Part shown: positions 43,407 through 44,303 of the stretch, piece after piece
Layout: each line of letters opens with the position of its first letter
How positions within the stretch are numbered: the first letter of the stretch is position 1
NCBI RefSeq assembly: GCF_016903815.1
Contig: NZ_CP069973.1
DNA: 64,000 nucleotides
Direction: 5' to 3' (one strand)
Origin: Escherichia coli
Lineage (GTDB): Bacteria; Pseudomonadota; Gammaproteobacteria; Enterobacterales; Enterobacteriaceae
The notes under the pieces: model-generated
What the model was told of the DNA's origin: nothing
Databases searched by the model: none
Seen by the model: only the letters and a program-made list of their open reading frames with translations
Translations under genes and position numbers: made by a program

Positions 43407-44303
43407 TCAGTAACAGCAGTAGCGAATAAAATAAAAAAATACCGGAGCGGTGAAAATTAATGAGTCAATCCTGTCAAGGAGTCCGCCATGTCCTGGTAAT
43501 AGTTTTCCACTATCTTTAACACCAATATCTCGTTTGATGGCTGACATCACTACATCGCCGCAAAAACCACTAATACCAATTAACAAACCCGCTAATAATG
43601 CCTGTAATGTATCTAGCGGTGTCAGCAACGGTCCAATAATCAGTGACGCAATCATGGTGGTGATTACGCCGCCCATCAGACCTTCCAATGTTTTTCCCGG
43701 GCTGACTTTAGGGACCACTTTTCTTCTGCCGCAGGATTTTCCCCATAAATACTGTGCAATATCGTTTGACTCGGTTAATGCCAAAAGAAATAACACCAGT
43801 AACGCCTCGCCCTGGATATTTATGGTTGGCAACATTAACAACCAGGCGGCATGACTCAAGGTGAAAACGGTCATTATTCAGCCACAAAAAATGGCACTCA
43901 CGGTATGCAGAAAACCAGAGGGGTCACCCACTAAAGCTCGCCAGGTGGCTAATATCAGAAACCCAGCCAAAGGTATAAATAACAGAAACAGCTCAAAGCA
44001 ATTAAAACCGATAAGCAAATAGTTAAGAGGAATACCCCAATATAACCAACGCGGAAAATGTTCAGATATAAGCGTACAATATTATTTCAATGCCAGAAAA
44101 CTTATCAGCGCAAAAAACGTCAACGTCATCCCGCGTGGACCTGAAATCACCATTGAAAAACAAATGACGATGCCCCACCAGGTACGAATACGTAATGTAA
44201 CCTCACCCCCTTTTCTCTCCGGTAACCGCCATATCAGAAAACGGTTTATCAGCGTTGCTAAAATTAACAACGCGAAAAGTGTTGCCAGAGATTTTTCCAG
44301 CAT
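43407..44303 (-). pseudogene. ynbB: ynbB (CDP-diglyceride synthase-like) interrupted by in-frame TAA at 44082-44084
   Basis: ORFs 43407-43874 and 44082-44303 are in the same frame and together span exactly 897 nt; single stop separates them. Confidence 0.6.

Follow-up and report, generated by a model that had tools for sequence, protein, structure and literature searches.

Two in-frame stop codons interrupt ynbB, a paralogue of cdsA, in an ST405-type Escherichia coli chromosome

The stretch of DNA analysed here, referred to as the window, is 64,000 nt long and is, except for two bases, the same as positions 1725535-1789534 of the chromosome of Escherichia coli strain 7/2 (NZ_CP023820.1). Both mismatches (window positions 49468 and 52975) lie inside an intact autotransporter gene of 6,081 nt (48517-54597), which is found between pdxI and ydbL and whose K-12 counterpart, ydbA, is disrupted by an IS. 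The window contains none of the seven MLST loci, and the designation ST405-type comes from strains with the identical ynbB allele for which typing has been published. Among the carriers, 50579417 (PMC6046176) and WCHEC4533 and WCHEC96200 (PMC9037040) have been described as ST405 or analysed among ST405 genomes. The gene order at the locus in the RefSeq record of strain 7/2 is pdxI-ydbD-ynbA-ynbB-ynbC-ynbD-azoR. The features discussed below are the following:

40328-41620, minus strand: ynbD, intact, PAP2/dual-specificity phosphatase family (RefSeq annotation).
41634-43391, minus strand: ynbC, intact, beginning 15 nt past the ynbB stop and with its own Shine-Dalgarno sequence (duplex -5.7 kcal/mol).
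43407-44303, minus strand: ynbB pseudogene; the frame has 298 codons and a terminal TGA, and two premature stops break it (translation).
43407-43874, minus strand: C-terminal remnant ORF, Met144-Tyr298 (155 aa) plus stop, the catalytic half including SAIKRDIGVKDSGKLLPGHGGLLDRID.
43878-43880, minus strand: second premature stop, TGA at codon 142; TGG (Trp) in Escherichia alleles.
43881-44081, minus strand: middle remnant, codons 75-141, between the two stops (translation).
44082-44084, minus strand: first premature stop, TAA at codon 74, next base T; GAA (Glu) in intact alleles.
44085-44303, minus strand: N-terminal remnant, codons 1-73, the sole piece with the native start and coupled to the ynbA stop through TAATG.
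44303-44908, minus strand: ynbA, intact and a member of the CDP-alcohol phosphatidyltransferase family as annotated by RefSeq in the identical sequence; the stop codon of ynbA overlaps the start codon of ynbB.
43937-45310, no strand assigned: tract of 1,374 nt (3' end of ydbD, ynbA, and ynbB codons 1-122 including TAA74), 100% identical to an O169:H41 strain.

The start codon of ynbD varies in RefSeq. The gene is given as 1,293 nt in 7/2, NY1601, and others, and as 1,317 nt, overlapping ynbC, in K-12, while the mechanically called ORF of the window reaches further upstream, to 41719 (40328-41719). These differences probably reflect inconsistent annotation rather than biology.

Translated on the minus strand from 44303 to 43407, ynbB forms one frame of 897 nt, as had been proposed in the original prediction, and its ATG at 44303 overlaps the stop codon of ynbA (TAATG). 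The two ORFs of 73 aa and 155 aa described there do share the ynbB frame, and the TAA between them does occupy the position of a sense codon, which was correctly guessed to be GAA. However, the prediction also held that this single TAA was what separated the ORFs, and this is wrong, since 73 and 155 codons add up to 228 and not to 298. There are 70 codon positions between the two ORFs, and a second nonsense codon, the TGA at 43880-43878, is found among them. The frame consists of codons 1-73, TAA74, the 67 codons 75-141, TGA142, Ile143, and Met144-Tyr298. Alignment of the window allele to ynbB of other strains shows the ancestral codons: K-12 and the two closest intact alleles found have GAA at codon 74 and TGG at codon 142. 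A G-to-T change turns Glu74 into TAA, and a G-to-A change turns Trp142 into TGA.

The identification of the gene as the CdsA-like ynbB of the ynbABCD group holds, both by synteny and by its match to Pfam CTP_transf_1. Intact YnbB of K-12 matches this profile (PF01148) with an E-value of 1e-69 over residues 37-295, and the C-terminal half of the protein can be aligned to Thermotoga CdsA (structures 4Q2E and 4Q2G). The catalytic signature S-x-x-K-R-x4-K-D-x-G-x2-L-P-G-H-G-G-x-x-D-R-x-D, the columns of which are invariant or nearly so in the alignment of orthologues, is kept in the conceptual translation of the window allele as SAIKRDIGVKDSGKLLPGHGGLLDRID. When it comes to the separate pieces, the 155-aa remnant covers profile positions 108-263 of 264 (E = 1.8e-56) and aligns to the C-terminal part of the same Thermotoga enzyme, TmCdsA (4Q2E/4Q2G), while neither the N-terminal nor the middle remnant alone matches any Pfam domain. 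The profile match, the catalytic signature, and the position within ynbA-ynbB-ynbC-ynbD are all as expected for this family. An uninterrupted frame of 298-305 codons with all transmembrane segments is not found, as codons 74 and 142 are stops, and the window allele is therefore a remnant of the CTP_transf_1 family and not a functional member of it.

At the nucleotide level the window allele is 97.4% identical to intact ynbB of K-12. The two share the locus, synteny, overlaps, 897-nt frame, and catalytic motif of K-12 YnbB (b1409), but the window allele has the stops at Glu74 and Trp142 as well as 12 missense differences, six of which are private to it (including W58G, V81E, and G166E). In RefSeq the ynbB gene of strain 7/2 (CRT46_RS08620), which is 100% identical to that of the window, is flagged by PGAP as a pseudogene with an "internal stop," the note being silent on the number of stops. 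The RefSeq pseudogenes of 7/2 and of other ST405-type genomes are the same allele as that of the window and differ from it in nothing. The pseudogene is in other words already known from annotation and is mechanistically nothing new; no paper discussing it was found in the literature searched.

A chance expectation is not applicable to the stops in ynbB; the test is a comparison with other genomes. A ynbB match is present in 4,333 of 5,426 complete E. coli genomes and in none of the other 1,093, and the coverage is at least 80% in 4,273. The two stops were searched for using 30-mers centred on each of them; megablast uses an exact word of 28 nt, so that a match needs the stop itself. The TAA probe was found in 98 and the TGA probe in 97 of the 5,426 genomes, and 97 genomes are at least 99% identical to the window across the surrounding 8.5 kb. 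Recurrence of precisely this pair of stops is limited to the 97-98 genomes of this one haplotype, for which TAA74 and TGA142 may serve as simple lineage markers. The gene is 100% identical over all 897 nt in at least 60 complete genomes, which originate from human, dog, cat, cattle, duck, wild bird, pork, and surface water and from many laboratories and countries. One of the 97-98 probe records is labelled as a plasmid, though ynbB is chromosomal; possibly this is a mislabelled replicon or a chromosomal fragment.

The original prediction had allowed for homologues of naturally about 220 aa that start at the downstream methionine. No support for this was found. Orthologues from Escherichia, Klebsiella, Citrobacter, Salmonella, Serratia, and Phytobacter have lengths of 298-305 aa and align with 100% query coverage, and naturally short homologues are rejected for these six genera. 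Phase variation of ynbB was also considered, and is unsupported, both lesions being substitutions outside repeats.

The two stops are not found together everywhere. In the O169:H41 strain Res13-Lact-PER13-34 the TAA at codon 74 is present, but codon 142 is TGG, and neither T161I nor G166E is found. This TAA-only allele shows that the TAA can occur without the TGA. The 1,374-nt tract listed above is 100% identical between the window and this strain, while its flanks differ by 2-5% on both sides. These identities mark the tract as a recombination mosaic with one breakpoint within the pseudogene. Probably TAA74 came first and TGA142 was added later in the ST405-type lineage. Alternatively, recombination could have put an intact tract in place of the 3' half of the O169:H41 allele.

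Nine private codon changes, found in ynbB of the window and in none of three intact alleles, were counted: V24I, W58G, the stop at E74, V81E, V123A, the stop at W142, a synonymous change at L155, T161I, and G166E. All three remnants are affected, W58G being located in the N-terminal, V81E and V123A in the middle, and T161I and G166E in the C-terminal piece. An alignment was made of orthologues from E. fergusonii, other Escherichia, Klebsiella, Salmonella, Citrobacter, Phytobacter, and Serratia together with E. coli CdsA. In this alignment Trp58 is conserved in all YnbB orthologues, and Glu74 and Gly166 are nearly invariant. The ratio of non-synonymous to synonymous private changes is 8:1 in ynbB and 10:16 in ynbA, ynbC, ynbD, and azoR pooled (Fisher p = 0.018), a contrast that is based on only nine changes in ynbB and is of nominal significance only. 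The neutral expectation is about 3.2:1, and the value for ynbB is close to neutral. This pattern fits relaxed purifying selection or neutral decay, the counts being small. Three features of a unitary nonsense pseudogene were observed, namely stops at the positions of sense codons, a lesion that is reproducible between genomes, and relaxed purifying selection. As to the single inactivating nonsense mutation originally put forward, nonsense is correct while single is not, as there are two stops and other degenerative substitutions besides. What the window contains is an established pseudogene in the course of decay, and not a gene with one fresh lesion.

The neighbouring genes are intact. In ynbD the private changes are 2:9 non-synonymous to synonymous, and by this count the gene still looks constrained. 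Together with the Shine-Dalgarno sequence of ynbC, this hints that the genes downstream of ynbB are still used. The corresponding ratios are 3:2 in ynbA and 5:5 in ynbC, both richer in non-synonymous changes than ynbD. Selection may thus have relaxed somewhat over the whole of the broken operon, but the numbers are too small for a conclusion.

We are highly confident that ynbB is a lineage-fixed nonsense pseudogene of the ST405-type chromosome, the loss of which is tolerated through CdsA as a back-up and has been followed by neutral drift. Ribosomes that enter ynbB by coupling from ynbA would stop after 73 codons. No full-length CDP-diacylglycerol synthase paralogue of 298 aa would then be made, and no meaningful translation of the catalytic C-terminal half is expected. 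The essential paralogue cdsA is annotated as intact in strain 7/2. CdsA and YnbB share a homologous C-terminal catalytic half, but only CdsA is essential; the N-terminal halves of the two proteins are unrelated, and YnbB cannot replace CdsA in bulk phospholipid synthesis (PMC7018664). Overproduction of YnbB increases the level of MPIase (PMC6362211; reviewed in PMC7018664), while a ynbB knockout grows like its parent and has an unchanged MPIase level (PMC6362211; PMC7018664). CdsA makes both CDP-DAG and the MPIase precursor, and the cell would tolerate the loss of ynbB since, with CdsA intact, YnbB is a back-up that is not essential. Once inactivated, ynbB would have drifted neutrally and gained more damaging substitutions, with TGA142 as a later second hit.

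The loss of ynbB is recurrent in E. coli and has occurred by unrelated routes, which makes the present finding an ordinary one. In ZH063, an ST131 strain (PMC4933990), the whole ydbD-ynbA-ynbB-ynbC-ynbD block is missing and pdxI abuts azoR (NZ_CP014522.1, 1587-3098; compare window 39722-48309). Several other genomes among the matches listed show a match to pdxI and azoR only, as in ZH063. In 14EC017 a deletion joins the 5' end of ynbA to the 3' end of ynbC (an ynbA'-'ynbC fusion), and in 17-07187 an IS1-flanked deletion takes out ydbD-ynbA-ynbB. In other E. coli strains ynbB is disrupted by insertions of IS2 and IS1. The outcome, no YnbB, is the same in other natural ynbB-null E. coli which otherwise keep the region. 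The window allele differs from the deletions and IS alleles in that the lesions are point nonsense mutations, and gene length, flanking genes, and operon structure are untouched.

This recurrence could be taken to mean that inactivation of ynbB is beneficial in host-adapted extraintestinal lineages, and not merely neutral decay. The losses are mechanistically independent of each other and include both the deletion in an ST131 strain and the nonsense mutations of ST405-type strains, and the TAA-bearing tract is also found on a second genetic background as a recombinant patch of 1.4 kb. Furthermore, ynbB is reported to be cold-induced (PMC11413397; bioRxiv 10.64898/2026.06.05.730299), and such a function may be needless in warm-blooded hosts. 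However, a dispensable gene under weak selection would show recurrent loss equally well, and about 4,100 of the 5,426 genomes keep a full-length copy without these two stops (the 4,273 with at least 80% coverage minus about 98, copies with other lesions not being counted). An adaptive loss is for these reasons considered unlikely. [quoted passage not shown] If such a role holds, the loss of ynbB may not be phenotypically neutral outside the host.

It is also conceivable that the gene has been split and is still partly functional. The 155-aa ORF would then form a separate unit of translation, with ribosomes either initiating internally or reinitiating past the TGA, and would give a minimal cytidylyltransferase of about the size of CarS that keeps some synthesis of the MPIase precursor. 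As described above, this ORF retains positions 108-263 of the CTP_transf_1 profile and the full KR...KD...HGG..DR.D motif, and it corresponds to the part of TmCdsA in which the active site has been placed (PMC7018664). Studies using chimeras have likewise located the catalytic activity in the conserved C-terminal halves, and CarS, which belongs to the same superfamily, has five helices (PMC7018664). An ATG is found 4 nt after the TGA (TGA ATA ATG). However, there is no Shine-Dalgarno sequence before Met144, where the duplex is -1.5 kcal/mol against a mean of -2.5 for the window background. Ribosomes from the native start would be released at TAA74, 210 nt upstream of Met144, and reinitiation would need separate translation of the middle piece, which has only TTG or GTG as in-frame candidate starts. 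The fragment further lacks the M-domain, which forms the dimer interface in TmCdsA (PMC7018664). Its CarS-like match (PF01864) is weak and below the cut-offs, 18.4 against 22 bits in Pfam and 26.8 against 148 in NCBIfam, and among the best matches there is no natural orthologue of such a length, the short entries being labelled partial. Finally, T161I and G166E, the latter at a nearly invariant glycine, are private to the lineage and argue against purifying selection on this piece. A split but partly functional gene is accordingly regarded as highly improbable. Very doubtful, too, is a wider proposal in which the 155-aa ORF is expressed at a low level as a natural "minimal" synthase of CDP-DAG or the MPIase precursor, and the natural ynbB-null lineages, ST405-type and ST131 (one strain), could reveal whether the reported contribution of YnbB to the upregulation of MPIase in the cold matters outside the laboratory, for instance through a defect in cold growth or environmental survival that is traded for host adaptation.

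The full-length protein might in principle still be made by programmed recoding, through a suppressor tRNA or selenocysteine at the UGA. Codon 142 was originally a tryptophan codon, and tRNA-Trp can misread UGA at low frequency. However, two different stop codons would need to be decoded, and the first of these is a UAA followed by U, which is generally regarded as the most efficient terminator context in E. coli. No SECIS or other recoding RNA came out of an Rfam scan of positions 43000-45200 (E up to 1), in which the only match was a spurious one to a lncRNA at 19.5 bits against a threshold of 55. The stops are also confined to one haplotype, with sense codons at these positions in all other alleles and genera, and the accompanying radical substitutions fit decay and not a kept function. 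Recoding can in practice be dismissed.

The same applies to sequencing error. The original prediction had left the choice between a genuine nonsense mutation and a base-call error, and of these the nonsense mutation stands. An error would be a fair prior for one lone substitution in one sequence, but nothing was found in its favour here. The idea that the stops are assembly artefacts in a gene that is really intact is refuted because the identical allele, with both stops and seven further private substitutions, recurs in many independently assembled complete genomes from varied hosts and countries; in addition, TAA74 and TGA142 are substitutions outside homopolymer runs. As the pseudogene has two stops and is recurrent, resequencing is unwarranted.

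Natural ynbB-null backgrounds are available both in ST405-type strains and in the many E. coli genomes without the operon. This is relevant for studies of MPIase biosynthesis and of the cold-induction role reported for YnbB, as it means that clinical lineages do without YnbB and rely on CdsA alone. In practice the finding matters little and will not surprise a specialist, as E. coli routinely loses non-essential paralogues by decay.

Two other regions of the window may be mentioned. Between ydcF and hrpA (34010-35420) there are three small hypothetical genes and a flagged gene fragment. The three genes (34010-35281) matched nothing in Pfam, PADLOC, or NCBIfam; they encode proteins of 125, 149, and 112 aa, and the last two overlap. 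A tnpA gene of the IS200C family is located at 17366-17824, between ydcO and ydcL.
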